DNA from: Minisyncoccota bacterium
GTDB lineage: Bacteria > Patescibacteriota > Minisyncoccia > Minisyncoccales > GWA2-38-27
Assembly: GCA_028697015.1 (NCBI GenBank)
Contig: JAQVFW010000001.1
Span: 3,603 to 67,602 of the forward strand
Length of the DNA stretch: 64,000 nucleotides
Reading direction: 5' to 3'
A program made the translations under genes and the position numbers. Below the pieces are notes generated by a model that had not been told where the DNA came from, did no database searches, and was given only the letters and a program-made list of their open reading frames with translations. Numbering within the stretch: position 1 is the first letter of the stretch; the number at the start of each line of letters is the position of its first letter. Positions 7,779 to 45,609 of this stretch are shown piece by piece.

Positions 7779-10196
7779 ATGAAAAAATACGAACCGAAAA
7801 AAATAGAGCAAAAATGGCAGAATGTTTGGGAGAAAAAAGGCGTTTTTAAAGCAAAGGATTTTTCAAAGAAAAAAAAGCTCTATTTGCTTGTTGAGTTTCC
7901 ATATCCTTCAGGAGAAGGGCTTCATGTCGGACATTGCCGGAGCTTTACGGCTTTTGACATTATTGCCCGGAAAAAAAGAATGGAGGGTTATAACGTCCTT
8001 TATCCTATTGGCTGGGATGCTTTCGGATTGCCGACAGAAAATCATGCTATTAAAAAAGGACTTCATCCGTCTGTTATCACAAAGAAAAATACAGACACTT
8101 TCAGACGCCAGTTGAAAAAGGCGGGTTTTTCTTTTGATTTTTCAAGAGAGATAAACACAACAAATCCAGATTATTATAAATGGACCCAGTGGATATTTAT
8201 ACAAATGTTTAAAAAAGGGCTTGCATACAAAGACAAAATGGACATTAATTGGTGTCCTTCCTGTAAAATAGGACTTGCTAACGAGGAAGTTATTTCCGGG
8301 AATTGCGAAAGATGCAATACAAAAGTGGAAAAAAAAGAGAAAGAACAATGGATGCTGAGAATTACAAAATATGCCGACCGCCTGATTAAGGATCTTGATC
8401 TTGTTGATTATCTTGAAAAGATAAAAATCCAGCAGAAAGAATGGATAGGAAAATCGGAAGGTGCTTTGGTTAAATTCTACATTGAAGAAATAAAAGAATA
8501 TGTCGAGGTTTTTACCACAAGAATAGATACTATATTTTCGGGAACTTTTTTAATACTGTCCCCCGGGCACAAAATAATAGAAAAGCACAAGGATAAAATC
8601 AAGAATATTAAGGAGGTTATGGAATACCATAGAAAGGCAAAAAATACTTCCGATATAGACAGAACAAATATTGAAAAAGAAATAACCGGAGTTAAATTAG
8701 AGGGCCTTACTGCCATAAATCCGGCTACAAATGAAAAAATGCAAGTTTGGAGCGCTGATTTTGTTCTTGAACATTATGGTTCAGGAGCCGTTTTTGCCGA
8801 TGCTCATGATATCAGAGATTTTAAGATGGCAAAGATTTATAACCTGCCTTTGAAAATATCCCTTATTCCAAAAGATAAGGATTTGGCTAGAAAAGTTGAA
8901 AATTTTGAAGAATGTTTTGAAGGAGAAGGGACTCTTTGCAATTCAATGCAATTTGACGGCATTTCTTCTTCTTTGGCAAGACCGCTTATTATTTCCTTTT
9001 TAAAGAAAAAAGGCCTTGCTAAGGAAAAAACCGTTTATAAATTAAGGGATTGGGTTTTTTCAAGACAGCATTATTGGGGAGAGCCGATTCCGATGGTTTT
9101 TTGCAAGAAGTGCGGATGGACGGAAATTCCTGAAAAGGAACTTCCTTTAAAATTGCCCGACGTTAAAAAGTATCAGCCGTCAAACACCGGAGAGTCCCCC
9201 CTTTCTTTAATTCCTTCTTTTGTTAATACAAAATGTCCAAAGTGCAAAGGAGAGGCAAAAAGGGAAACGGACACTATGCCAAATTGGGCCGGCTCTAATT
9301 GGTATTTCCTTCGCTATCTGGATGTAAAAAACAATAAAAAACTGGCGGATTCAAAAAAGATAAAATACTGGATGCCGGTTGATTGGTATAACGGAGGAAT
9401 GGAACATGTTACTTTGCATTTGCTTTACTCCCGTTTTGTTTATAAATTTCTGTGGGATATTAACGCTGTTCCAAAAGAAATAGGGAAAGAACCTTATAAA
9501 AAAAGAACTGCCCAAGGAATGATTTTGGGACAAGGAGGAATCAAGATGTCAAAATCAAAGGGCAATGTTGTAAATCCCGAGGAAATAATAGATAAATGGG
9601 GAAGCGATGTTTTCAGAGTTTATATCATGTTCATGGGTCCTTTCGAGCAGGCCATTTCATGGGATTCCAAAGGAATAAAAGGAGCAAGAAGGTTTTTGGA
9701 AAAGGTTTTTGCAATTTCCGTTTCAGAGGAAGTTTCTTCTGGAATTAAAAAAAATCTTCAAAAGACAATAAGAAAAGTTTCAAAAGACATAGACGCTTTA
9801 AAGTTCAATACGGCGATAAGCTCTCTGATGGAATTTTCCAATTCTTTAAAAGATGGAAAAATTGACAAAGAGAATTTCAAGGATTTTCTTAAAATTCTCT
9901 CTCCCTTTGCTCCTCATCTTTGCGAGCATTTATGGAATGAAAATAAATTTAAAGATCTTTGCCTTTCTTCCTTTTGGCCAAAATTTAGCAAAGAATTAGA
10001 AAAAGAAAAAGAGTTGGAAATCGTTGTTCAGGTAAATGGAAAATTAAGGGCGAAACTTCTTCTCCCTATTGACATTTCAGAGGAAGAAGCTAAAAAGGTG
10101 GCATTGTCAAACGAAAAAGTGAAAAGCAACATAGGAGAGAAAAAAATAAAAAGGGTTGTATTTGTGCCTAAAAAGCTAATTAACTTTGTTATATAA
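7779..10196 (+). CDS. leuS: leucyl-tRNA synthetase
   Basis: HVGH (HIGH-type) and KMSKS motifs, CP1 editing region and Zn-knuckle cysteines. 805 aa. Confidence 0.97.
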   Translation: MKKYEPKKIEQKWQNVWEKKGVFKAKDFSKKKKLYLLVEFPYPSGEGLHVGHCRSFTAFDIIARKKRMEGYNVLYPIGWDAFGLPTENHAIKKGLHPSVITKKNTDTFRRQLKKAGFSFDFSREINTTNPDYYKWTQWIFIQMFKKGLAYKDKMDINWCPSCKIGLANEEVISGNCERCNTKVEKKEKEQWMLRITKYADRLIKDLDLVDYLEKIKIQQKEWIGKSEGALVKFYIEEIKEYVEVFTTRIDTIFSGTFLILSPGHKIIEKHKDKIKNIKEVMEYHRKAKNTSDIDRTNIEKEITGVKLEGLTAINPATNEKMQVWSADFVLEHYGSGAVFADAHDIRDFKMAKIYNLPLKISLIPKDKDLARKVENFEECFEGEGTLCNSMQFDGISSSLARPLIISFLKKKGLAKEKTVYKLRDWVFSRQHYWGEPIPMVFCKKCGWTEIPEKELPLKLPDVKKYQPSNTGESPLSLIPSFVNTKCPKCKGEAKRETDTMPNWAGSNWYFLRYLDVKNNKKLADSKKIKYWMPVDWYNGGMEHVTLHLLYSRFVYKFLWDINAVPKEIGKEPYKKRTAQGMILGQGGIKMSKSKGNVVNPEEIIDKWGSDVFRVYIMFMGPFEQAISWDSKGIKGARRFLEKVFAISVSEEVSSGIKKNLQKTIRKVSKDIDALKFNTAISSLMEFSNSLKDGKIDKENFKDFLKILSPFAPHLCEHLWNENKFKDLCLSSFWPKFSKELEKEKELEIVVQVNGKLRAKLLLPIDISEEEAKKVALSNEKVKSNIGEKKIKRVVFVPKKLINFVI

Positions 10197-23285: not shown

Positions 23286-25388
23286 ATGGAAAATAAAATA
23301 AAAAAAGTTCAAAGAAGGGATGGCACACTTGTAGATTTTAAAAAAGAGAAAATCAGCGAAGCTGTTTTTAAGGCGGTTACTTCTACCGGACAGGGAGACG
23401 GCATTATTTCAAAAAAAGTAACGGAAAAGGTTATTCAGATATTGGAAAGAAGGTTTAAAAAAGAAGAAATCCCGACGGTTGAACAGATCCAGGATATTGT
23501 TGAAGAAATTCTTATTATCGAAGGATTGGTTGAAACGGCAAAAGCCTATATTTTATACAGAGAACAAAGAAGAAAAATCAGAGAAACAGGAGAAGTTATT
23601 GATGAATCAAGCGAAAAAGTAGACAGTTATCTTAAGGAAATAGATTGGCAGGTAAACGAAAACGCCAATATGACATTTTCTCTTCAGGGGCTTAATCAAT
23701 ATGTCGGCTCCTATATATCCAAAAAATATTGGCTCAATAAAATTTATCCAAAAGAGGTAAGGGAAGCGGCGGCAAACGAGGATTTTCATATTCATAATTT
23801 GGAACTGCTGGCTCCATATTGCGCCGGATGGGATTTGCAAGATTTTTTAAAAAAAGGGTTTGGAGGAGTTTCAAGCAAACTGGAATGCCGTCCGCCAAAA
23901 CACTTTAGAACCGCTCTTGGACAGCTGGTTAATGTCCTTTTTACTCTCCAGGGAGAAACAGCCGGGGCTAACGCCGTTTCCAATTTTGATACTCTTCTTG
24001 CTCCTTTTATTCGCCATGATAATTTAAATTACCCCCAGGTAAAGCAGGCAATACAGGAATTTTTATACAATTGCATGGTACCGACAAGAGTTGGCTTTCA
24101 AACTCCGTTTCTTAATGTTTCACTTGATATTAATCCGCCAAAAACATTAAAGGACGTTCCTGTCATAATCGGAGGAGAACCGCAAAAGGAGACATATGGA
24201 GAATTTCAAGAAGAAATGAATATGTTTAATAAGGCCTTTTATGAAGGACTTATGGAAGGAGATGCCAAGGGAAGACCTTTTACGTTTCCTATACCTACTG
24301 TTTCAATTACCAAGGATTTTAATTGGGATAATCCCACCCTTAAACCTCTTTGGGAAGCGACCGCAAAATACGGCATTAATTATTTTTCCAATTTTATTCA
24401 ATCGGACATGAGTCCGGACGATGCAAGGTCAATGTGCTGCCGTCTTCGTCTTGATAACAGAGAGCTTTTAAAAAGAGGAGGAGGTCTTTTCGGTTCAAAC
24501 CCTCTTACCGGTTCAATTGGCGTTGTAACAATAAATATGCCAAGAATCGGCTATCTTTCCAAAACCAAAAAAGAATTCTTTGAAAGATTGGAACGATTAA
24601 TGGATATTGCCAAAGAAAGCTTGGAGATAAAGAGAAAAGCTATTGAAAATTTTATGGAAAAAGGACTTTATCCTTATTCCAGGTATTATCTCTCGGATGT
24701 TAAAAAGATGAGAGGTTCATATTTCGGAAATCATTTTTCTACAATTGGGATTATGGGAGTAAACGAAGCTCTTCTTAATTTTTTAGACGAGGATATCGCT
24801 TCAAAAAAGGGAAGAAAGTTTGCCGTAGAAGTGCTTACCTTTATGAGAGAAATACTTGTAAAATTTCAAAAAGAAACAGGAAATCTTTATAACCTTGAGG
24901 CGACTCCGGGAGAAGGAACAAGCTATAGGCAGGCGAGAGCAGACAAAAAAAAGTATCCGGACATTATTACTGCAGGAACTAAAGAAGTTCCTTATTATAC
25001 AAATTCCACTCATCTTCCCGTCGGATATACCGATGATGCTTTTGAGGCCTTAAAACTGCAGGACGAATTACAATCCCAATACACCGGAGGAACCGTCTTG
25101 CATTTATTTTTAGGTGAAAAAATTGATAATCCTGAATCAGCTAAAATGTTTGTAAAAAAGGTATTTGAGAAATTTCATTTGCCGTATATTACTCTTACTC
25201 CCACGTTTTCGGTTTGTCCCGTCCACGGATATATTTCCGGGGAGCATTTTACTTGCCCGAAATGCGCCATTAAACAGCCCTGTGAGGTTTATTCAAGGAT
25301 TGTTGGGTATATAAGGCCTGTTCAGCAGTGGAATCACGGTAAAAAACAAGAATTCAAGGAAAGAAAGGAGTATAAAAACAAAGTGTAA
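23286..25388 (+). CDS. nrdD: anaerobic ribonucleoside-triphosphate reductase (class III)
   Basis: N-terminal ATP-cone, RSMCCRL thiyl-radical loop, C-terminal Zn site and glycyl-radical motif SRIVGYIRPV. 700 aa. Confidence 0.95.
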   Translation: MENKIKKVQRRDGTLVDFKKEKISEAVFKAVTSTGQGDGIISKKVTEKVIQILERRFKKEEIPTVEQIQDIVEEILIIEGLVETAKAYILYREQRRKIRETGEVIDESSEKVDSYLKEIDWQVNENANMTFSLQGLNQYVGSYISKKYWLNKIYPKEVREAAANEDFHIHNLELLAPYCAGWDLQDFLKKGFGGVSSKLECRPPKHFRTALGQLVNVLFTLQGETAGANAVSNFDTLLAPFIRHDNLNYPQVKQAIQEFLYNCMVPTRVGFQTPFLNVSLDINPPKTLKDVPVIIGGEPQKETYGEFQEEMNMFNKAFYEGLMEGDAKGRPFTFPIPTVSITKDFNWDNPTLKPLWEATAKYGINYFSNFIQSDMSPDDARSMCCRLRLDNRELLKRGGGLFGSNPLTGSIGVVTINMPRIGYLSKTKKEFFERLERLMDIAKESLEIKRKAIENFMEKGLYPYSRYYLSDVKKMRGSYFGNHFSTIGIMGVNEALLNFLDEDIASKKGRKFAVEVLTFMREILVKFQKETGNLYNLEATPGEGTSYRQARADKKKYPDIITAGTKEVPYYTNSTHLPVGYTDDAFEALKLQDELQSQYTGGTVLHLFLGEKIDNPESAKMFVKKVFEKFHLPYITLTPTFSVCPVHGYISGEHFTCPKCAIKQPCEVYSRIVGYIRPVQQWNHGKKQEFKERKEYKNKV

Positions 25389-25392
25389 TCCT

Positions 25393-26094
25393 ATGAAAAT
25401 AGGAGGTTTGCAAAAACTAACTCTTATTGATTATCCAGGGAAGCCTGCGGCTACTATTTTTCTTGCCGGATGTAATTTCCGATGCCCTTTTTGCTATTCA
25501 AAGGAATTAGTTTTGCCAAAGGAAATAGAAAATCATCCTCAAATTTTAGAAAAGGAAGTTTTTGATTTTTTAAAAGAAAGAAAGGGCTTTATTGACGGGG
25601 TGATTATTTGTGGCGGAGAGCCAAGCATTCACAAAGAGTTGCCTCAATTTATTAAAAAGATAAAGGATCTTGGTTTTTTGGTAAAGCTTGATACAAACGG
25701 GTCAAATCCTAAGATGCTTAGAAAATTGATAGAAGAAAAAATGGTTGATTATGTTGCTATGGATATAAAAGGGGCGCAGAAAAAATACGAAAAAGCGACT
25801 GGAGTTAATATAAATATAGAAGATATAAAAGAAAGCGTTAAAATTTTAAAAGAAGGGAAAACGGATTATGAATTTAGAACTACCGTTGTGCCTAAAATTC
25901 ATGCCAAAGAGGATTTTTTAGAGATAGGAAAATGGATAGGGGGAAATGATGTTAAATACTATCTTCAAAATTTCAGGGCTGAAAAAACAATAAATCCTCA
26001 ATTTGAAAAAACAAAACCTTTTCTTGACGGTTACATTCTTGAAATTATTAAAGAAATTTCTCCTTTTTTCAAAATTTGCAAACTGAGGCAATAA
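25393..26094 (+). CDS. nrdG: anaerobic RNR activating radical-SAM protein
   Basis: CNFRCPFC radical-SAM cluster motif and GGEP. Lies immediately downstream of nrdD. Confidence 0.9.
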   Translation: MKIGGLQKLTLIDYPGKPAATIFLAGCNFRCPFCYSKELVLPKEIENHPQILEKEVFDFLKERKGFIDGVIICGGEPSIHKELPQFIKKIKDLGFLVKLDTNGSNPKMLRKLIEEKMVDYVAMDIKGAQKKYEKATGVNINIEDIKESVKILKEGKTDYEFRTTVVPKIHAKEDFLEIGKWIGGNDVKYYLQNFRAEKTINPQFEKTKPFLDGYILEIIKEISPFFKICKLRQ

Positions 26095-37010: not shown

Positions 37011-37048
37011 AGTTCCTTTTGCAGCACCTTGAAATAAGGATAGTGGTC

Positions 37049-38233
37049 ATGAGAAAGGTTGGAGTGGAGATTGAATATCCCGTTGTGGATAAAAACGGAA
37101 TGGCTTTTCCTGTTAGCCGGATTTTTCCGGTTCTTATTGAAAGGGAATGGATTCCCGAATTTGACGATGTCTATAAAGACGAAATTATTGCAGTCTCAAA
37201 AAATGGCAAAGTTGTAACCAGCGATGCCGGAGAGGGGATTTTAGAGGTAAATGAGCCTCCTGTAAACTCTCTTTTTGAGGCTGAAAAATCGTTGAATGAA
37301 CTAATTTCTTTTCTTGCAGGAGAATTTAATTCTCTTGAAGCAAAAATTCTCGGTTTTGGCGCTCAGCCTTTTGAGAAAAAAAATAAATGGGCAAGAAAAG
37401 GCAGATATAAAACCCTCCTTTCAATCGGGTTTTCTCCTTCTCTTAATAAAACAACAAGAACGGCGGCAAGCCAGGTCCATATTGATGTAAAAGAAGAAGA
37501 AATTTACAAGGCAGTAAATGTTTTAAATGCCTTGTCCGGAATTGCAATTGCTTTTTGCGCCAATTCTTCCGTTATGAACGGAGAAGACAATGGAAGGTTG
37601 GCAAAAAGAGAAGCCGTTTGGGGAGAATTTGCTCCCGAAAGAAGCGGCGTCCCTCCTGTTTGGTTTAAATCAAACAATCATCTTTTTTCTTTTTTAGAAG
37701 ATATGAAATTCGTTCTTACTAAGAGTAATGGGAATTATTTTATTCCCGGAATTTCTTTCAAGGAATTTGCCTCTGGCCTTTCTTTGGAGGAAAAAACGGC
37801 CCATTACCTTTATCATGAAGGAACGGTTTGGTTTTCCTGCCGCCCCCGCCTTAAATACGGAACCGTTGAATTTCGTCCTTGTTGCACTCAACCTCATAAT
37901 GAGAGCATGGCTGTTTCAGCTTTTGCTCTTGGTATTGTAGAGTGCCTTGAGGAAGTTCATTCTTTTACAAGAGAACTCTATTATGATTTTAAAAGAGAAG
38001 GGTTCTCTTTCCGATGCCTTAGAAAAAATGCAATTGAGTATGGATTTTATGGAGTTGATCCTGGATTACTGAAAGATGTTCTTTTCTTTATTTACAAAGG
38101 GCTGAAAAAAAGAAATAAAGGAGAAGAATTTTTCGCTGACATTCTTTTTGAAAGGATGAAAAAAGTCATTTGCCCGGCAATGCGGGCGGCCACTATCAAA
38201 AGCGAAGATCTCGTAAGAGAACTTGCTTTTTAG
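37049..38233 (+). CDS. carboxylate-amine ligase, glutamate-cysteine ligase family 2 (GCS2/YbdK-like)
   Basis: VGVEIEYPVV start, SQVHIDV and GTVEFRPCCTQ resemble GCS2 signatures. ATG at 37049 lies 8 nt after AAGGA (the track starts at TTG 37019). Confidence 0.65.
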   Translation: MRKVGVEIEYPVVDKNGMAFPVSRIFPVLIEREWIPEFDDVYKDEIIAVSKNGKVVTSDAGEGILEVNEPPVNSLFEAEKSLNELISFLAGEFNSLEAKILGFGAQPFEKKNKWARKGRYKTLLSIGFSPSLNKTTRTAASQVHIDVKEEEIYKAVNVLNALSGIAIAFCANSSVMNGEDNGRLAKREAVWGEFAPERSGVPPVWFKSNNHLFSFLEDMKFVLTKSNGNYFIPGISFKEFASGLSLEEKTAHYLYHEGTVWFSCRPRLKYGTVEFRPCCTQPHNESMAVSAFALGIVECLEEVHSFTRELYYDFKREGFSFRCLRKNAIEYGFYGVDPGLLKDVLFFIYKGLKKRNKGEEFFADILFERMKKVICPAMRAATIKSEDLVRELAF

Positions 38234-38294
38234 TATTTTAAAAAAGGTTTGGGTTTTGCTCAAACCTCTTTTTTTTGCTATAACTGTTTTAGTT

Positions 38295-38978
38295 ATGAAA
38301 ACTCTTTTTTTACAATTTAGGGAAGACAAGGTGGTGGCACAACATGAACAAAAATGCTTTTTAAAGCATATTAATTTAAAAGTTCAATCCAGAAATATTT
38401 TTATGGATGAGTTTGATTTTCTGGGGAAAAACGACTTTACCCATATTATTTTAGGCGGTTCCGGAGAATTTAGTATTTCAGATAAAAATAAGAAAAGTAA
38501 ATATTGGAAAAAAGTGGAAAAAATAATACCTTTTTTGGAAAGAGAAATTAAAAATAACACCAATATTTTAGGAGTTTGTCTTGGCCATCAATTATTGGCT
38601 TTTCTTCTCGGTTCGGAAGTTAAATCTCTTTTAAATCAAAAAGAAGTGGGAACTTTCCGAATTTATCTTACTTTAGAAGGGAAAAAAGACCCACTTTTTT
38701 ACAATTTGCCGAAAAGTTTTCTTGTTCAGGAGGGCCACAAAGATTCTGTTTTGAAATTGCCAAAAGAGGCAACCCTTCTTGCAAAGGGGAAAAAATGCAA
38801 AATACAATCTTTCAGATTTAAAAAAGCGGCAGGTATTCAGTTTCATCCAGAACTTGAAATTGAAGATATTAATTTTCGTCTTTCTCTTTATCCGGATTAT
38901 GCCAAAAAGAACAAGCAGCCGAAAATAAAAGAAACGCCTTTTGCTTTTAAAATTTTTGAAAATTTTTATGGAATTTAA
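38295..38978 (+). CDS. class I glutamine amidotransferase / C26 gamma-glutamyl hydrolase-like protein
   Basis: GVCLGHQLLA (nucleophile Cys-His elbow) and GIQFHPE (His/Glu of the triad). ATG at 38295 inside ORF 38223..38978. Confidence 0.75.
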   Translation: MKTLFLQFREDKVVAQHEQKCFLKHINLKVQSRNIFMDEFDFLGKNDFTHIILGGSGEFSISDKNKKSKYWKKVEKIIPFLEREIKNNTNILGVCLGHQLLAFLLGSEVKSLLNQKEVGTFRIYLTLEGKKDPLFYNLPKSFLVQEGHKDSVLKLPKEATLLAKGKKCKIQSFRFKKAAGIQFHPELEIEDINFRLSLYPDYAKKNKQPKIKETPFAFKIFENFYGI

Positions 38979-40119
38979 AATTCTCAAAAAATCAAAAAAA
39001 AGCAGGGCTCGCTTTGGTATTTTAAAAACAAAAAATGGCATTTTAAAAACTCCTTGTTTTGTTCCTGTAGCAACTAAGGCGGCAGTTAAGGCATTAACCT
39101 TAAAAGAAATGGAAGAAACAAAAAGCCAGATTTTTATTGCAAATGCTTTTCATCTTCATCTTAAGCCAGGGGAAGATGTGATTAAAAAAGCGGGAGGAAT
39201 ACATAATTTTGCTAATTGGAAAAAGCCAACAATGACTGACTCAGGTGGTTTTCAGGTTTTTTCGCTTGGTTTTGGAAGAGATTTTAATGTAGGAAAAATT
39301 TCAAAAAATCGCGGCAAAGAAACGATAGAAGACGGGAAACAGCCGAATTTTGTTAAAATAACGGAGGAAGGAGCTTTCTTTAAGTCGCCATTTGACGGAA
39401 GAGAGCTTTTTTTAGGGCCAAAAGAATCAATGATGATACAGGAAAAAATCGGAGCCGATATTATTTTTGCTTTTGATGAATGCACTGCTCCTTTTTCTGA
39501 CTTTAATTATGTCAAAAAAGCAATAGAAAGAACCAATAAGTGGGCCAAAATATGCCTTAAAGTAAAAAAAACAGATCAAGCTCTTTTTGGGATTGTTCAG
39601 GGCTCAAAATTTAAGGAGTTAAGGGAAAAAAGCGCTTCTTTTATATCCTCCCTTGGTTTTGACGGTTTTGGCATAGGAGGGGATCTTGGAGAAAGTAAAA
39701 AAACAACAGAAGATATATTAAAATGGACAATTCCCATTCTTCCTGAAAAAAAGCCCCGCCATTTGCTCGGCATAGGAAAAATTGAAGATATTCTTTTAAT
39801 GGTTAAAAATGGAATAGATTTTTTTGATTGTACGGTGCCAACTCATTATGGAAGAAGAGGTATTGCCTTTATTTCTGCAGATTCTTTTTTAAAAGAAAAA
39901 AAGATTGACCTTCGGCAGTCAAAGTTTTTGAAAGATAAAAATCCTCTTGATAAGAAATGCTCTTGTTTTGTTTGTCTTAATCATAGAAGAAATTATATTT
40001 CTCATCTTATAAGGGCGAAGGAAATTTCCGGTCTTTCTCTTTTGACTTTTCATAATCTTTATTTTTTTAACAGTTATGTTGAAAAAATCAGAGAGAAGAT
40101 AAAAGAGGGGAAGATATGA
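38968..40119 (+). CDS. tgt: queuine tRNA-ribosyltransferase (tRNA-guanine transglycosylase)
   Basis: TPCFVPV, TDSGGFQV, GIVQG and the Zn site CSCFVCLNHRRNYISHL. ATG at 38968 inside ORF 38941..40119. Confidence 0.93.
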   Translation: MEFKILKKSKKSRARFGILKTKNGILKTPCFVPVATKAAVKALTLKEMEETKSQIFIANAFHLHLKPGEDVIKKAGGIHNFANWKKPTMTDSGGFQVFSLGFGRDFNVGKISKNRGKETIEDGKQPNFVKITEEGAFFKSPFDGRELFLGPKESMMIQEKIGADIIFAFDECTAPFSDFNYVKKAIERTNKWAKICLKVKKTDQALFGIVQGSKFKELREKSASFISSLGFDGFGIGGDLGESKKTTEDILKWTIPILPEKKPRHLLGIGKIEDILLMVKNGIDFFDCTVPTHYGRRGIAFISADSFLKEKKIDLRQSKFLKDKNPLDKKCSCFVCLNHRRNYISHLIRAKEISGLSLLTFHNLYFFNSYVEKIREKIKEGKI

Positions 40120-40131
40120 TATTTTTAACTA

Positions 40132-40160
40132 TTGACATCTATTCTTATTAAGAATATAAT
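40132..40160 (+). promoter_or_regulatory. promoter with embedded 7-1-7 inverted repeat (Fur-box-like operator)
   Basis: TTGACA (40132-40137), 17-nt spacer, TATAAT (40155-40160). The perfect palindrome ATTCTTA-t-TAAGAAT (40141-40155) fills the spacer. Confidence 0.55.
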
Positions 40161-40167
40161 CTTAATA

Positions 40168-40545
40168 ATGAAAAAAGAAAGGACAACTTCTCAAAAGACG
40201 GTCATCTTGGATTTTTTGAAAGACACTAAAGCTCATCCTTGCGCGGAAGACGTTTACTCTTCTGTTAAAGAAAAACTTCCTTCAATAAGCAAAGGAACGG
40301 TTTATAGGATTTTAGGAGATTTTAAAGAGAAAGGAGTAATTCAAGAAATCCCGCTTTCTGTTTCAAGATATGACGGAGACACGTCTTGCCATGCTCATTT
40401 TATTTGCAAATCTTGCCAAAAAGTTTTTGATCTTTCTGATGTTTGTAAAAATTGCCATGTCTTGAAAACAAAAAGCACAAAGGTCGGGAAAATTGAAAAT
40501 TATCAATTATATTTCTATGGAAAATGTAAACAATGTGGAAAATAG
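40168..40545 (+). CDS. Fur-family metalloregulator (Fur/PerR/Zur type not resolvable)
   Basis: Winged-helix region ISKGTVYRILGDF, HAHFICKSC and C-terminal CKQCG (structural Cys4 site). ATG at 40168 (the track's TTG at 40132 is the -35 box). Confidence 0.85.
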   Translation: MKKERTTSQKTVILDFLKDTKAHPCAEDVYSSVKEKLPSISKGTVYRILGDFKEKGVIQEIPLSVSRYDGDTSCHAHFICKSCQKVFDLSDVCKNCHVLKTKSTKVGKIENYQLYFYGKCKQCGK

Positions 40546-40810
40546 CAAATGCCATGATTGCGGCGTTTTGATGGATATGGAAAATGGCAAAATAAAGAAC
40601 GGTTATCATCTTTTATATAAAGAAAACGAAGAAGAAACAAAGGTTTTTAAATGCAAGGGTTGTTATGAGAAAAATCCTTCTCTTTCAAATTTCAGACCCT
40701 GCGAGGTTTATTCGAGAGTAGTTGGCTATTTAAGGCCCGTAGGCCAATGGAATTTAGGGAAAAAAGAGGAATATTCCGAAAGAAAAGAGTATTTATGCAA
40801 AGGAGAGTAA
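40517..40810 (+). CDS. stand-alone NrdD C-terminal module (zinc ribbon plus glycyl-radical segment)
   Basis: CHDC...CKGC, then CEVYSRVVGYLRPVGQWNLGKKEEYSERKEY. This is 24/31 identical to the C-terminus of the full nrdD at 23286..25388. The start is uncertain (TTG 40493 or ATG 40517). Overlaps the Fur-family gene's end. Confidence 0.75.
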   Translation: MENVNNVENSKCHDCGVLMDMENGKIKNGYHLLYKENEEETKVFKCKGCYEKNPSLSNFRPCEVYSRVVGYLRPVGQWNLGKKEEYSERKEYLCKGE

Positions 40811-40832
40811 TTTATGTTTTAATAAAAAAAAG

Positions 40833-40858
40833 AGCGCTTTCATATATAGCGCTTTTTT
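40833..40858 (+). terminator. intrinsic terminator
   Basis: AGCGCT-n9-AGCGCT hairpin flanked by an A-tract and a T6 tract. Confidence 0.6.
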
Positions 40859-40862
40859 GTTA

Positions 40863-40890
40863 TTGACAAATTATTAATATATGTTATAAT
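40863..40890 (+). promoter_or_regulatory. consensus sigma70-like promoter
   Basis: TTGACA (40863-40868), 16-nt spacer, TGtTATAAT (40882-40890). Confidence 0.6.
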
Positions 40891-40933
40891 GAGAAAGTAC
40901 TAAACAAAAAAGCTCTTTTTGTAGGAGAAAAAA

Positions 40934-41257
40934 ATGGAAGAATTATTTAGCGCAATTCTTGCGCTCATAATTGTTCTTATCGGGTTTTCCCTTATTGTTT
41001 CCCCTCTTTTGGGGAAGCCCGATTGTTTCCTCATCCTTCGTCCAGTAGGACAAAGAGGAGGAAACATTGTTTCAGGCCTGACTAGGGGAATTGCCCGTCT
41101 CTTTAACAGGGGAGGATCATCCCTGTTCAGGTGGGCAAATAGTCGGTCTATTTTAATGAGAGTGCTGCTTTTTTATCCGGTAGCAACAGCTCTCGTTATT
41201 GCGGGAGGCATTTTTTCAATCATCGCCGAAATCGTTTTCGGCAGAAGGAGAAGATGA
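40934..41257 (+). CDS. small 2-TM membrane protein with Arg/Gly-rich loop, moderately elevated GC
   Basis: ORF track. RBS GGAGAAAAAA precedes the ATG. Has its own promoter and terminator. Ends in GRRRR. Confidence 0.5.
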   Translation: MEELFSAILALIIVLIGFSLIVSPLLGKPDCFLILRPVGQRGGNIVSGLTRGIARLFNRGGSSLFRWANSRSILMRVLLFYPVATALVIAGGIFSIIAEIVFGRRRR

Positions 41258-41263
41258 CTTCAA

Positions 41264-41294
41264 AAAGGGCACATCGATGCCCTTTTCGTCTTTT
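41264..41294 (+). terminator. intrinsic terminator
   Basis: AAAGGGCA-catcga-TGCCCTTT followed by a TCGTCTTTT tract. Confidence 0.65.
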
Positions 41295-41362
41295 AGCAGA
41301 ATTTGACAACATATTTTTATCTGATAGAATATAATCCGACAAAATCAGTCGGTTTTTAATTT

Positions 41363-41758
41363 ATGAAAATATCAAAAAAATCGCAATACGGCCTTCGTTC
41401 TATGATATTTCTTGCCAAAAATTATGGCAAAAAAGAAATTTATTCTTTGAAAAATATATCAAAGAATGAATCAATTTCTTTTGATTATCTTGAGAAAATC
41501 TTTTTCTCTCTCGAAAAGGCAAATTTGGTAAAAGGGAAAAGGGGCCGGCTTGGAGGATATGCTCTTTCCAGGCCCCCTTCTAAGATTACCGCAGATGAAA
41601 TAATAAAAGCAATTGAAGGGAAATTGTCTTTGGTTGAATGCAAGGGGTGTCTTAAAGAAAAAAAATGTCCGGCAAAAGGCCTTTGGGACGAGTTGCAACT
41701 ATCTTTTTCTTCAACTCTTTCATCAATAACCCTTTTAAAGCTGGCAAACAAAAAATGA
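41363..41758 (+). CDS. Rrf2-family transcriptional regulator (IscR-like)
   Basis: MKISKKSQYGLRSMIFLA N-terminal wHTH and the Cys cluster CKGCLKEKKC. Lies upstream of iscS. Confidence 0.85.
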   Translation: MKISKKSQYGLRSMIFLAKNYGKKEIYSLKNISKNESISFDYLEKIFFSLEKANLVKGKRGRLGGYALSRPPSKITADEIIKAIEGKLSLVECKGCLKEKKCPAKGLWDELQLSFSSTLSSITLLKLANKK

Positions 41759-42909
41759 AAAAAATATATTTTGATTATGCTTCTACAACTCCGGTTGATC
41801 CTAAGGTTTTTTTGGAAATGAAGCCGTTTTTTTCAAAGAAGTTTGGCAATACAATGTCTCTTCATTATTTTGGGCAGGAAGCGAAAGTTTTTCTTGAAAA
41901 AAGCAGGGAAAAGATGGCAAAAGCAATAAATGCCGACACTGAAGAGATAATTTTTACGGGTTCTGCCACCGAAAGCAATAATATGGTTTTAAAAGGCCTT
42001 TCTTTCTTTAAAAAAGGAGGACATATTATTATTTCTTCAATTGAGCACCCTTGTATTGTTGAAAGCGCTGCTTGGCTTGAAAAAAGGGGCTTTAAAGTTA
42101 CTCGTCTCAAGGTTGACAGATACGGGACAGTTGATTTAAAAGAACTTGAAAAAAGCATAGAAGAAGAAACTTTTCTTGTTTCTATTATTCATGGGTCAAA
42201 CGAAATAGGCACAATCCAGCCGATTGATAAAATAGGGGCAATTTGCCGGAAAAAAAACGTCTATTTCCATACTGATGCATCTCAGACATTTTCAAAAATC
42301 CCGATAGACGTAGAAAAAATAAAAATAGATCTTCTCACTGCAAGCTCTCATAAAATATACGGTCCTAAAGGAGCAGCTTTTCTTTATAAAAGAAAAGGGG
42401 TTAAATTAGAACCGCTTATCCATGGAGGAGGGCAGGAAAACGGCCTTAGATCTTCTACTTTGGATATTCCATCTATTGTCGGCTTTGCCAAGGCAGTTGA
42501 TATTTCTATCGCTACAATGAAAAAAGAAGAAAATAGGATTATTAATTTGAGGGAAAAATTAATAAAAGGAGTATTAAAGATAAAAGGAACGAGATTAAAC
42601 GGCCATCCTAAAAATCGTTTGGCAAATAACGCCAATTTCAGTTTTTCTTTTATCGAGGGAGAATCTATTGCTATCCAGCTGGATTTAAAAGGGATAGCCG
42701 TTTCTACTGGTTCTGCCTGTTCTTCAACAAAGCTTGAGCCAAGCCACGTTTTGCTTGCTATCGGCCTAAGGCATGAAGATGCTCATGGTTCCTTAAGGGT
42801 AACGCTTGGAAGATGGACAAAAGAAAAAGAAGTTGACTATTTCTTGAAAATTTTGCCGGGAATTATAAAGCAATTAAGAAAAATATCCCCATTTTATGAA
42901 AAAAAATAA
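41755..42909 (+). CDS. iscS: cysteine desulfurase (IscS/NifS)
   Basis: IYFDYASTTP, SSHKIYGPKG (PLP Lys) and TGSACSS (active Cys). ATG at 41755 forms an ATGA overlap with the Rrf2 stop. Confidence 0.92.
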   Translation: MKKIYFDYASTTPVDPKVFLEMKPFFSKKFGNTMSLHYFGQEAKVFLEKSREKMAKAINADTEEIIFTGSATESNNMVLKGLSFFKKGGHIIISSIEHPCIVESAAWLEKRGFKVTRLKVDRYGTVDLKELEKSIEEETFLVSIIHGSNEIGTIQPIDKIGAICRKKNVYFHTDASQTFSKIPIDVEKIKIDLLTASSHKIYGPKGAAFLYKRKGVKLEPLIHGGGQENGLRSSTLDIPSIVGFAKAVDISIATMKKEENRIINLREKLIKGVLKIKGTRLNGHPKNRLANNANFSFSFIEGESIAIQLDLKGIAVSTGSACSSTKLEPSHVLLAIGLRHEDAHGSLRVTLGRWTKEKEVDYFLKILPGIIKQLRKISPFYEKK

Positions 42910-43402
42910 CAATATTTGTGCCGGACTTTATACAAAAAAAGTTCTTGAGACATTCAAAAATCCTAAAAATTACGGAAGAATAAAAAATGCTGACGGAATT
43001 GGAAAGGTGGGCAATATTGTCTGTGGGGACTTGATGCAGCTTTACATTAAGATTGGCAGAAATAGAAAAAAAGAGGAAATTATAAAAGATATAAAGTTTG
43101 AAACTTTTGGATGCGTTGCTGCCATTTCAACAAGCAGCACTATTACGGACCTTGTTAAAGGAAAAACAATAAATCAGGCCTTAAAAATTGAAAAAAATAG
43201 CATTATTAAAAAACTGGGCGGTTTACCTAAAATAAAATATCATTGCTCAGTTTTAGCTGTTGATGCCTTAACTGAAGCTATTTTTGATTATTTTTCAAAA
43301 AATGAAAAAGAAATTCCCTTGGAAATACTTAAAAGGCATGAAAAAATAAAAAGAGAAAGGGAAATTATAGAAGAAAGGTATAAAAACCTGGAAAAAAGAT
43401 AA
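42896..43402 (+). CDS. iscU: Fe-S cluster scaffold IscU/NifU-like
   Basis: NIVCGD, FGCVAAI and YHCSVLA conserved Cys contexts. Confidence 0.85.
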   Translation: MKKNNNICAGLYTKKVLETFKNPKNYGRIKNADGIGKVGNIVCGDLMQLYIKIGRNRKKEEIIKDIKFETFGCVAAISTSSTITDLVKGKTINQALKIEKNSIIKKLGGLPKIKYHCSVLAVDALTEAIFDYFSKNEKEIPLEILKRHEKIKREREIIEERYKNLEKR

Positions 43403-43403
43403 A

Positions 43404-44459
43404 ATGAACAAAGAACCTCAAAAAGTTGCCGTTGCCATGTCCGGAGGAGTTGATTCTTCGGTTGCAGCGGCCTTGCTACAAAAGGAAGGATATGAAACTA
43501 TTGGTGTTTTTATGAAATTCTGGAAAGACGGGAAGGAAGGGGTGAATAAATGCTGCTCTTCTGATTCAGAAAGAAATGCTCGATTGACTTGCCAGAAACT
43601 TGGAATTCCTTTTTATGTTTTTAATTTTGAAAAAGAGTTCAAGAAGGAAGTTGTAGATTATTTTTTAAAAACGACAATTGGCGGAGATACTCCAAATCCT
43701 TGCGTTGTTTGTAATGAGAAAATAAAATTTGGTCTGTTTCTTGAAAAATCGCTAAAACTTGGAGCTGATTTTATCGCAACTGGCCATTATGCCAAAAAAA
43801 AAGAATTTAATGAGAAAGGAAAAATAAGATTTTCCCTTTTAAAAGGAAAAGACAAGAAAAAGGACCAATCTTATTTTCTATGGGCCCTGGGACAGAAAGA
43901 GTTAAAGCATATGATTTTTCCTGTTGGAATTTATACAAAGGACAAAGTGAAAAAAATGGCGGAGGATTTCAAATTGCCGTCCAGCGGCGCCAAGGAATCA
44001 ATGGAGGTTTGTTTCATTTCCGATACGATAGATGCTTTTTTGGAAAGAAAAATTGGAAAAAAGGAAGGGGATATTGTTTATAATAATAAAGCGATAGGAA
44101 AGCACAAAGGCGTTTGGCTTTACACTCTTGGCCAGAGGAAAGGGATAGGACTTTCAAACGGCCCTTATTATGTTATAAAGAAGGACATAAAAAGTAATAT
44201 TCTGTTTGTAGGTAAAAATAAAAAACTTCTTAATAAAAGCAAAGCAGTCATTAAAAAAGTAAATTGGGTTTCAGGGAAAAAGCCGAAGTTTCCTTTGAGG
44301 GTGACAGTGATGTCAAGATACAATCAAAAAAGCTTTGTTTCTGTTGTTAATGAAAATAGCGTTGTTTTTAATTCCCAAAAAACATCAATCACTCCCGGCC
44401 AGTCAATGGTCTTTTATAAAGGCCAAGAGCTATTGGGGGGAGGCATAATCAAAAATTAG
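43404..44459 (+). CDS. mnmA: tRNA 2-thiouridine(34) synthase
   Basis: VAVAMSGGVDSSVAA PP-loop, NPCVVCN, KDQSYFLW. Confidence 0.93.
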   Translation: MNKEPQKVAVAMSGGVDSSVAAALLQKEGYETIGVFMKFWKDGKEGVNKCCSSDSERNARLTCQKLGIPFYVFNFEKEFKKEVVDYFLKTTIGGDTPNPCVVCNEKIKFGLFLEKSLKLGADFIATGHYAKKKEFNEKGKIRFSLLKGKDKKKDQSYFLWALGQKELKHMIFPVGIYTKDKVKKMAEDFKLPSSGAKESMEVCFISDTIDAFLERKIGKKEGDIVYNNKAIGKHKGVWLYTLGQRKGIGLSNGPYYVIKKDIKSNILFVGKNKKLLNKSKAVIKKVNWVSGKKPKFPLRVTVMSRYNQKSFVSVVNENSVVFNSQKTSITPGQSMVFYKGQELLGGGIIKN

Positions 44460-44460
44460 A

Positions 44461-45609
44461 ATGAAAAGAGGATTAATTATCGCTTTTGGCGAGTTATTTT
44501 TAAAATCAGAAGGAGTAAAAAGGATTTTCAAAAAGAAACTGGAGAATAATATTTTTTTTGTTTTAAAAAAGGAAAAAATTTCTTTCAAATTAATTTCATT
44601 ACGAGAAAGAATTTTTATTGAAACGGAAGATGTCAAAAAGGCAAAAAAAGCCCTAAAGAGAGTTTTTGGCATTTCTTGGATTTCAGAGAGTTTTTACTCT
44701 CATAAAATTGATTTGGAAAATCTTTTTTCTTTTATTTCTCAAAACTATATAAACTGGATAAAAGAGAAAGAAACTTTTGCTGTTAGGGTAAGAATTGAAG
44801 AAAAAATTATTAAAGAAAGCAAAAAAGAGTTAATCGAAAAAGCTGCAAAAATAATAGATAGAAAAGTAAAACTCAAAAAACCCGGCAAAGAGATCAATAT
44901 TGAAATAAGAAAGCACGGGCAATTTCTTTATTTTAAAAAAGAAAAAGGAGCTGGCGGCTTGCCCTATTCTTCTTCTGGCAGGGTTCTTATTCTAATGTCA
45001 GGTGGCATTGATTCTCCTGTTGCTTCACATTTAATTTCAAAAAGAGGAGGAGAATGTGTTTGGGTTCATTTTCATAGTTTTCCTCTTACTTCAAATAAAA
45101 GCATTGAAAAAATAAAAGAACTTGCAAAGGTTTTTTTAAAAACATATCCGAAGCTGAGAGTTTATTTCGTCCCTTTTCATAAAATACAGATGGAAATTAA
45201 ATCAAAATCCTCCCCTTTTTTAAGAGTTCTTCTTTATAGAAGAAAGATGATTCAAATTGCCGGCAAAATTGCCATAAAAGAAAAGTGCGAAGCGCTTGCT
45301 ACGGGAGAAAGCTTGGGACAGGTAAGTTCCCAGACCCTTTCCAATATAGCGATAACGTCGGAAATATCGAAACTTCCTATTTTAAGGCCTCTTATTTCAA
45401 GCGATAAAGAAGAAATAATAGAAACGGCAAAAGAAATAGGTGTTTTTGATATTTCAATAAAACCTCAAGAAGATTGTTGTACTCTTTTTGTTCCCAAGAA
45501 ATCAACAGGTAAAGGAAGTTTGGAGAAAATAAAGGAAATAGAAAAGATTCTTGATAATAAAATAACAAGAAAAGAGGAAAAAGAAGCTTTTTTTATTGAT
45601 TTTTGTTGA
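44461..45609 (+). CDS. thiI: tRNA 4-thiouridine synthase ThiI (no rhodanese domain)
   Basis: THUMP-like N-terminal half, LMSGGIDSPVA PP-loop, ATGESLGQVSSQT. Confidence 0.88.
   Translation: MKRGLIIAFGELFLKSEGVKRIFKKKLENNIFFVLKKEKISFKLISLRERIFIETEDVKKAKKALKRVFGISWISESFYSHKIDLENLFSFISQNYINWIKEKETFAVRVRIEEKIIKESKKELIEKAAKIIDRKVKLKKPGKEINIEIRKHGQFLYFKKEKGAGGLPYSSSGRVLILMSGGIDSPVASHLISKRGGECVWVHFHSFPLTSNKSIEKIKELAKVFLKTYPKLRVYFVPFHKIQMEIKSKSSPFLRVLLYRRKMIQIAGKIAIKEKCEALATGESLGQVSSQTLSNIAITSEISKLPILRPLISSDKEEIIETAKEIGVFDISIKPQEDCCTLFVPKKSTGKGSLEKIKEIEKILDNKITRKEEKEAFFIDFC

Follow-up and report, generated by a model that had tools for sequence, protein, structure and literature searches.

A protein of 97 amino acids (aa) encoded by a Minisyncoccota bacterium (GenBank assembly GCA_028697015.1), here called mini-NrdD, consists of a Cys4 zinc ribbon followed by a glycyl-radical domain (GRD) of the kind which closes NrdD, the catalytic subunit of class III ribonucleotide reductase (RNR). 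Its gene lies in a stretch of 64,000 nucleotides of contig JAQVFW010000001.1 (positions 3,603 to 67,602 of the forward strand), hereafter the window, to which all coordinates refer unless another locus is named. Mini-NrdD belongs to a conserved, selected gene family which reaches beyond the bacteria of the candidate phyla radiation (CPR), and its GRD core stays in step with that of the cognate NrdD. With a little better than even confidence, and by analogy with what GrcA/YfiD does for pyruvate formate-lyase (PFL), we propose that mini-NrdD is a trans-acting GRD for class III RNR, activated by NrdG, which would replace the domain cleaved by oxygen. The evidence is good that it represents a gene family and an accessory of RNR; its role as a repair part is what we infer. 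The elements concerned are the following.

40517 to 40810, + strand: mini-NrdD, 97 aa (Cys4 zinc ribbon, glycyl-radical loop, C-terminal tail).
40493 to 40810, + strand: the same open reading frame (ORF) from an alternative start, TTG 40493, giving 105 aa.
40550 to 40663, + strand: family-specific zinc ribbon, with knuckles CHDC (residues 12-15) and CKGC (residues 46-49).
40700 to 40792, + strand: glycyl-radical core, C62 to Y92 (CEVYSRVVGYLRPVGQWNLGKKEEYSERKEY).
23286 to 25388, + strand: full-length class III RNR catalytic subunit NrdD, 700 aa (ATP-cone and NRDD, 649 bits; NF006126, 1065 bits).
25393 to 26094, + strand: NrdG activase, a radical SAM protein (TIGR02495, 225 bits against a cut-off of 131).

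The ATG at 40517 is the likelier start of mini-NrdD, since 88% of 120 homologues start with the Met aligned to it and the resulting overlap of 29 nt with the preceding Fur-like gene recurs, at 26-29 nt, in relatives. A Pfam scan (E<=0.01) matched NRDD (PF13597) alone, at profile positions 505-562 of 562 with an E-value of 1.1e-11, and as the match is confined to this end of the profile the protein lacks a barrel; Gly_radical (PF01228 / IPR011140) was not matched in the same scan. Among NCBIfam models, those of NrdD alone were matched, at their extreme C-termini and far under cut-off: TIGR02487 gave 34.1 bits against a cut-off of 326, at profile positions 540-580, and mini-NrdD is thus no full-length NrdD. 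The elements which mark the C-terminus of an NrdD are nevertheless there, namely a zinc ribbon with four invariant Cys and a loop with the invariant G70 (codon 40724-40726) in RVVGY, residues 67-71, which has the form RVxG[FWY] of small stand-alone glycyl-radical domains. Between the knuckles lies a 30-residue beta-hairpin insert with invariant G29 and Y34. The core is identical at 24 of 31 positions to residues 666-696 of the window's NrdD, with G70 corresponding to the radical glycine G674. A preliminary description of this DNA had reported a small ORF with a Cys4 ribbon, no catalytic barrel and this identity to the NrdD C-terminus, radical Gly included, and the ORF call, the Pfam match and the alignment all bear it out.

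The window's NrdD keeps its own intact GRD and is the presumed partner or client of mini-NrdD, just as NrdG is presumed to install the radical on both. The nrdD and nrdG genes are separated by 4 nt, and a distance of 15 kb lies between them and the mini gene, which follows the Fur-like gene. Among the large ORFs of the window no further RNR was found, as the preliminary description had also held.

Small ORFs of this type are widespread. A word-indexed search with mini-NrdD returned 1404 matches, and the best 120 of these are all 85-121 aa long, carry PF13597 alone and are 47-75% identical to the window protein; where names are given, they read 'hypothetical' or 'anaerobic ribonucleoside-triphosphate reductase', and the organisms include Nealsonbacteria, Pacebacteria and Staskawiczbacteria. 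Ten diverse members whose source records were looked up had either no name or 'hypothetical protein', and none led to a cultured organism. An exhaustive profile search, which covered 1.84 billion representatives of 50%-identity clusters, yielded 4135 matches at E<=1e-3, of which 512 reach E<=1e-10; the lengths of the best 150 all fall within 42-159 aa. Outside the CPR, metagenome-assembled genomes (MAGs) with a mini gene are labelled Desulfobacterales, Syntrophales, Thermodesulfobacteriota and Bdellovibrionales, to which an Olavius symbiont is added. In one MAG, WY2.bin78, the mini gene and a full nrdD are found on separate contigs (loci L013 and L082 of our set). The survey for NrdD-C-terminal-only ORFs and their neighbours which the preliminary description had proposed has therefore returned a large family, with neighbours related to RNR and oxidative stress.

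The alignment of 120 sequences has 21 invariant positions, among them the four Cys and RxxGY (C12, D14, C15, G29, Y34, C46, C49, L56, C62, E63, Y65, S66, R67, G70, Y71, R73, P74, V75, W78, K82 and E85). The window gene was compared with its three closest relatives (L171-L173, 71-75% identical), which share the synteny TGT-Fur-mini...Rrf2-IscS-NifU, and the proportion of nonsynonymous differences (pN) was 0.17-0.19 at a saturated synonymous proportion (pS) of 0.75-0.85. For 14 less diverged pairs elsewhere in the family the median ratio of nonsynonymous to synonymous substitution rates (dN/dS) was 0.11, with 0.16 in the ribbon half and 0.08 in the radical core. The ribbon has features of its own: the first knuckle is CxxC in 226 of 234 minis, whereas it is CxxH in 37 of 39 NrdDs of the same genomes, the knuckles are spaced by about 30 residues against some 10-14 in NrdD, and an LxNF linker precedes the loop. 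In hhalign, the family aligned with NrdD C-termini at a probability of 99.8%, confidently from the second knuckle onward, and no confident alignment to NrdD was obtained for the N-terminal half before that knuckle. MAFFT had apparently matched the insert to the last barrel strand, a result discarded for this reason.

The radical domain follows the NrdD of its own genome. Across 15 genomes with both mini and NrdD sequences, the 32-residue core of the minis is 88% identical to the own NrdD, while its identity to other NrdDs and to other minis is 75% in each case (permutation p<1e-4). Where the amino acids agree, the codon identity of cognate pairs is 0.67, the baseline being 0.44; this excess, with a codon identity as high as 0.97 in L021, indicates recurrent gene conversion in tandem nrdD-mini loci. 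For the window pair, with its 15 kb between the genes, codon identity is 0.61. In four loci (L021, L027, L041 and L055) the nrdD 3' end and the adjacent mini share 90-96% nucleotide identity over the 96-nt core, and these are recent conversion tracts between the enzyme gene and the mini copy, with up to 97% identical codons. Moreover, per-site entropy of the core in 217 minis parallels that in 36 NrdDs (Spearman 0.84, p 4e-9), and the agreement includes the tail, which packs on the NrdD surface.

Genomic context connects the family to class III RNR and to oxidative stress. One genome per species was scanned, ORFs were called in 56 mini-carrying loci and their neighbours were clustered, with the following outcome.

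23 of 56 loci: full-length nrdD immediately upstream of the mini gene.
16 of 56 loci, all within these 23: nrdG immediately downstream of the mini gene.
15 of 56 loci: nrdR one gene further upstream.
13 of 56 loci, other than the 23: a directly adjacent oxidative-stress gene.
About a third of the 56 loci, mostly Desulfobacterales-type: no informative neighbour.

The most frequent layout is nrdR-nrdD-mini-nrdG, so that the association with class III RNR suggested beforehand is a direct one, such operons being common. The suggested link to oxidative stress likewise recurs. Rubrerythrin adjoins the mini gene in seven loci, among them a Fur-mini-rubrerythrin (L018) and an Rrf2-mini-rubrerythrin arrangement (L053); an Fe/Mn superoxide dismutase gene adjoins it, or is separated from it by one small ORF, in 3 of 56 loci and on a further contig (P0120); hemerythrin is the neighbour in one locus. 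Overlaps of 26-29 nt between the mini gene and a Fur/PerR-like gene are seen in 6 of 56 loci, on the P0120 contig and in L171-L173. We estimate, as opposed to having computed, that adjacency to oxidative-stress genes is far above chance, since they form a small fraction of any genome. The pairing with Fur, on which the preliminary description had built, is real in the window but lineage-specific, being found in about 10 of 60 contexts, and the placement between nrdD and nrdG is commoner.

In the window the genes around nrdD form the block FtsA-FtsZ-NrdD-NrdG-ComEC. The same block carries a mini gene between nrdD and nrdG in L019, L021, L026 and L055, and L027 matches this layout, NrdG not being called there. 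Most likely, therefore, the nrdD 3' end was partially duplicated in tandem to give the mini gene, which moved elsewhere later, and we infer that the position between nrdD and nrdG is older than the pairing with Fur.

The family is also carried by phages. In at least 23 IMG/VR contigs (within L091-L140) a mini gene has none of nrdD, nrdG, Fur and rubrerythrin in its vicinity, no nrdD or nrdG lying within 6 kb of it. In L108 (5836-6276) it sits among genes for tail sheath, PmgB-like head morphogenesis, tape measure and tail tube, and in L113 (5989-6297) beside those for a head protease and the major head protein; contigs such as these are genuine phages.

The transcription unit which contains the window's mini gene is composed of these further elements.

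40132 to 40160, + strand: sigma-70 promoter of the Fur-like/mini-NrdD operon, 12/12 consensus (TTGACA 40132-40137, 17 nt, TATAAT 40155-40160).
40140 to 40156, no strand: TATTCTTA-T-TAAGAATA, a perfect 8-1-8 palindrome which lies in the promoter spacer and overlaps the -10 element.
40168 to 40545, + strand: Fur-family regulator, PerR-like, 125 aa, true start ATG 40168 (the Joint Genome Institute, JGI, annotation has the same gene).
40819 to 40866, + strand: terminator-like hairpin with a U run (-16.1 kcal/mol, z = -3.4).

With a consensus promoter before the pair and a terminator hairpin after the small ORF, the two genes are predicted to form a self-contained bicistronic unit. Its mRNA is probably leaderless, because the -10 TATAAT ends 7 nt ahead of ATG 40168. 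The layout CTATTGACA, 17 nt, TATAAT, 7-8 nt, ATG is kept in the three relatives. An Rfam scan of 39800-41500 returned nothing relevant.

The regulator has a Fur-family fold, with 77.1 bits for PF01475 against a cut-off of 23.1, and its gene overlaps the small ORF by 29 nt, as the preliminary description had said. The top NCBIfam models are those of PerR (NF052545, 96.7 bits against a cut-off of 180; NF047406, 72.8 against 200); the equivalog cut-offs of PerR are missed, yet these models outscore those of Fur, Zur and Irr, the Fur models reaching at most 52.7 bits. The motifs HP(C)AED, RYDGD, CHAHFIC, VFDL, CKSC and CKQC were set by eye, in place of a computed alignment, against the Bacillus subtilis PerR sequence, and from their places they may correspond to the ligands H37, D85, H91, H93 and D104 (B. 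subtilis numbering) and to the two CxxC motifs of the structural zinc site.

The palindrome in the promoter is a candidate operator of the Fur/PerR-like repressor, which would then be autoregulated: at the level of sequence, the gene has an inverted repeat of the 7-1-7 operator type in its own promoter. It had earlier been described as a perfect 7-1-7 palindrome; it is perfect and does contain those arms, but its full extent is 8-1-8. It occurs once in the window, where no second good operator site was found and matches with up to three mismatches appear at chance frequency, and for this reason no regulon can be defined within the window. AT-rich, imperfect inverted repeats occupy the equivalent position in L171-L173 and are also found upstream of Fur in L003, L016 and L018.

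The structure of mini-NrdD was predicted with AlphaFold2 from the 120-sequence alignment. The model of the protein alone (mean predicted local distance difference test, pLDDT, 67.7; residues 1-8 below 50) has beta-rich ribbon strands at 29-36 and 39-46, strands 63-66 and 71-74 which pair as a hairpin about G70, and a helix spanning 80-87, and is consistent with a GRD. Searched by fold against the PDB, this model found no match below E 0.3, and the family profile had 0 matches at E<=0.01 among PDB sequences. The GRD probably needs the barrel for folding. Furthermore, the solved NrdDs are of other subtypes; the best PDB match of the window's NrdD is 8p23 (E 9e-40). In Prevotella copri NrdD, the GRD (residues 676-739) comprises the zinc site, the Gly loop and the tail, and it behaves as a highly mobile rigid body which can fully disengage from the barrel (PMC11226230). 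Replacement of the domain is hence physically plausible.

These results can be arranged into a tentative sequence of events. Mini-NrdD would share its transcript, and be coupled in translation, with an autoregulated PerR-like repressor and, because of this coupling, would be made when peroxide or oxygen stress inactivates the repressor. NrdG, with S-adenosylmethionine, would abstract the H atom of G70. Oxygen cleaves NrdD at the radical glycine, as it does in PFL (PMC12288474); once the window's enzyme had been cut at G674, its dead and already mobile GRD could swing out. The activated mini-GRD would then place its Gly loop into the barrel beside the catalytic Cys and its tail onto the NrdD surface, and nucleotide reduction would restart without remaking the 700-aa enzyme. 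That mini-NrdD might be such a spare part had been put forward in the preliminary description; every portion of the idea accessible in silico has come out in its favour and the findings named there as speaking against it did not appear. On the wider scale, we regard it as an even call whether class III RNR has a spare-part system of its own, made up of widespread autonomous NrdD GRDs which NrdG renders radical and which in some lineages have joined a PerR-type peroxide regulon.

The closest parallels are the spare parts of PFL, GrcA/YfiD from Escherichia coli and phage T4's Y06I (IPR011140), with which mini-NrdD shares the RVxGY radical motif. Like them, it has a short low-confidence N-terminal stretch (residues 1-8), a gene which may lie apart from or beside that of the client enzyme, a link to oxygen stress and versions in phages, the phage mini genes being a counterpart to T4's Y06I (PMC8683613). 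Unlike GrcA, it derives from NrdD and not from PFL, it has a Cys4 zinc ribbon, and its client would be class III RNR with NrdG as the activase. By sequence it is not a GrcA-family member, as it has no PFL-type Gly_radical match, nor is it an NrdD, as it has no barrel. The order of zinc site, Gly loop and tail is shared with the C-terminal GRD of NrdD (P. copri 676-739, PDB 8p23; T4 NrdD, 1h79), and mini-NrdD is made up of precisely the module which in NrdD forms the mobile GRD, with its structural zinc site, buried Gly loop and surface tail. It differs from that domain in being free-standing, without barrel or ATP-cone, and in its CxxC instead of CxxH first knuckle.

For the operon, the parallel is with the PerR operons of anaerobes (perR-rbr-rdl of Desulfovibrio, perR-rbr-roo of Geobacter), in which an autoregulated Fur-family repressor gene is followed by one or more protective genes, as would be the case here, and in which an AT-rich palindromic operator overlaps the -10 element, as the palindrome at 40140-40156 does (PMC545781). 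This palindrome resembles the 7-1-7 PerR box TTATAATNATTATAA in architecture, and the Fur-mini-rubrerythrin arrangement of L018 resembles the perR-rbr operons. Unlike in these, the cargo in the window is an RNR radical domain and not a peroxidase or rubrerythrin, the regulator stays under the NCBIfam PerR cut-offs, and the two genes overlap by 29 nt.

Spare-part repair of an oxygen-cleaved glycyl radical enzyme has so far been demonstrated for PFL alone. Andorfer and colleagues stated in 2021 that two PFL spare parts alone had been validated and that others may exist (PMC8683613), and in a June 2026 review the formate lyases are the sole class of glycyl radical enzymes with identified spare parts (PMC13450708). 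No description of an NrdD-derived autonomous radical domain was found in the searchable literature, in agreement with the earlier remark that no NrdD spare-part protein is established. RNR is essential, and a replaceable radical domain, if the proposal is true, would be a cheap way to recover the synthesis of DNA precursors after transient oxygen. It would explain how organisms perhaps reliant on an O2-labile RNR survive oxygen pulses, and would give phages a means to sustain host dNTP synthesis. Moreover, it would add a new member to PerR-type regulons and a new auxiliary gene to phages of anaerobes, and would offer a natural system in which to study how a GRD enters and leaves the barrel. 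The family, known from CPR/Patescibacteria, from sulfate reducers of the Desulfobacterales type and from their phages, supplies natural sequences by the hundred, together with sets of cognate NrdD and NrdG from the same operon, so that the question is directly testable in vitro.

Several observations weigh against the repair proposal. The identity of the regulator as PerR, and not Fur or Zur, would depend on a ranking of models below their thresholds. The palindrome is perfect in the window alone, with no second copy there by which a regulon could be delimited. Gene conversion, possibly neutral, could account for part of the cognate matching. The nrdD-mini-nrdG operon would imply constitutive co-expression, which suits a regular subunit equally well, and the loci without informative neighbours, mostly Desulfobacterales-type, make up about a third of the total. 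Finally, the stand-alone model is of moderate confidence at its pLDDT of 67.7 and has no structural neighbour.

The regular subunit just mentioned is the strongest alternative, though clearly an unlikely one: an NrdG-activated mini-GRD would routinely fill the barrels of NrdDs whose GRD is disengaged, cleaved or not, for instance in the 'inactive' monomer of a dimer or in a full-length, non-radical NrdD, and would so raise or buffer the pool of active sites. GrcA reportedly makes inactive full-length PFL active again in vivo, to go by the title of Kammel and Sawers 2022. A constitutive position between nrdD and nrdG, seen in 16-23 of 56 loci, is what such a subunit would be expected to have, L080 apparently encodes an NrdD without Gly loop together with a separate 49-aa Gly-loop ORF, and in the P. 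copri NrdD dimer the GRD is ordered in just one monomer (PMC11226230). The repeated relocation of mini genes beside PerR-like, rubrerythrin, superoxide dismutase and hemerythrin genes is, however, left unexplained, and the cognate NrdDs all retain their own intact GRD.

Somewhat less probable again is a decoy or sacrificial substrate, which in oxidative stress would compete for NrdG or absorb oxygen or radicals and never enter the barrel, so that NrdD would be kept non-radical and O2-insensitive, or NrdG titrated. The PerR-like repressor would supply the logic of induction in this lineage, and the RVVGY loop and the zinc ribbon, the elements which an activase is expected to recognise, are the most conserved. 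Against this stands the C-terminal tail, which in NrdD lies on the core surface and which in the minis is as constrained as in full NrdDs and matched to the cognate one; a decoy placed in the nrdD-nrdG operon would inhibit the co-expressed enzyme, and phages would have no obvious gain from it.

That mini-NrdD acts as partner to the Fur/PerR-like regulator, a zinc-ribbon redox sensor or anti-repressor for example, and uses an NrdD-derived fold without taking part in ribonucleotide reduction, is very improbable; the roughly 10 contexts in which the gene is translationally coupled to that regulator would fit, but most family members have no Fur neighbour, 23 of 56 are in nrd operons, and the radical motif and tail are invariant and NrdD-matched. 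The idea of a non-functional remnant of a partial nrdD duplication retains next to no probability and is rejected, for although the gene must have begun as a partly duplicated nrdD 3' end, and gene conversion with nrdD is seen in tandem copies, the ORF is intact and of conserved length in hundreds of diverged orthologues, is under purifying selection (dN/dS of about 0.1, mini-specific ribbon included), has a family-specific CxxC knuckle and insert as well as its own promoter, terminator and conserved translational overlap, and has spread to unrelated loci and phages, so that the decay named in the preliminary description as fatal to the spare-part idea is not what was found.

Among the neighbours of the window's pair, an Rrf2 regulator followed by cysteine desulfurase, NifU, MnmA-like and ThiI-like genes lies directly downstream (41363-45609), and an Rrf2-IscS-NifU cluster is also 3' of the Fur-mini pair in L171-L173 and on the P0120 contig; genes for Fe-S cluster supply thus adjoin a module dependent on an Fe-S activase. 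A second promoter with 12/12 consensus and an extended -10 element, at 40863-40890, drives a 107-aa ORF (40934-41257) which has no Pfam or NCBIfam match and, judged by eye, looks hydrophobic; the JGI contig of the same organism has it too, and the 71-75% identical relatives lack it. Two genes upstream of tgt (37019-38978), one glutamate-cysteine ligase-like of the GCS2 type and one for a class I glutamine amidotransferase, may make a low-molecular-weight thiol, which would bear on redox stress.

In L080 (JBAZBH010000002.1, a Patescibacteria MAG; region 7815-10126) the nrdD ORF stops just past the zinc ribbon, without a Gly loop, and is followed by a hairpin of about 90 nt made of CTATGGTT-like repeats (9832-9921), by a separate 49-aa ORF with Gly loop and tail only, and by nrdG. 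Either NrdD is naturally split here, or the gene is disrupted, or the assembly is at fault; a group I intron is unsupported, Rfam reporting a long hairpin only. If genuine, the split would show that a Gly loop is able to work in trans. Three other loci have NrdD ORFs of about double length, L064 (5654-10114, 1486 aa), L079 (5528-10168, 1546 aa) and L075 (80-3451, at least 1123 aa), which probably contain inteins.

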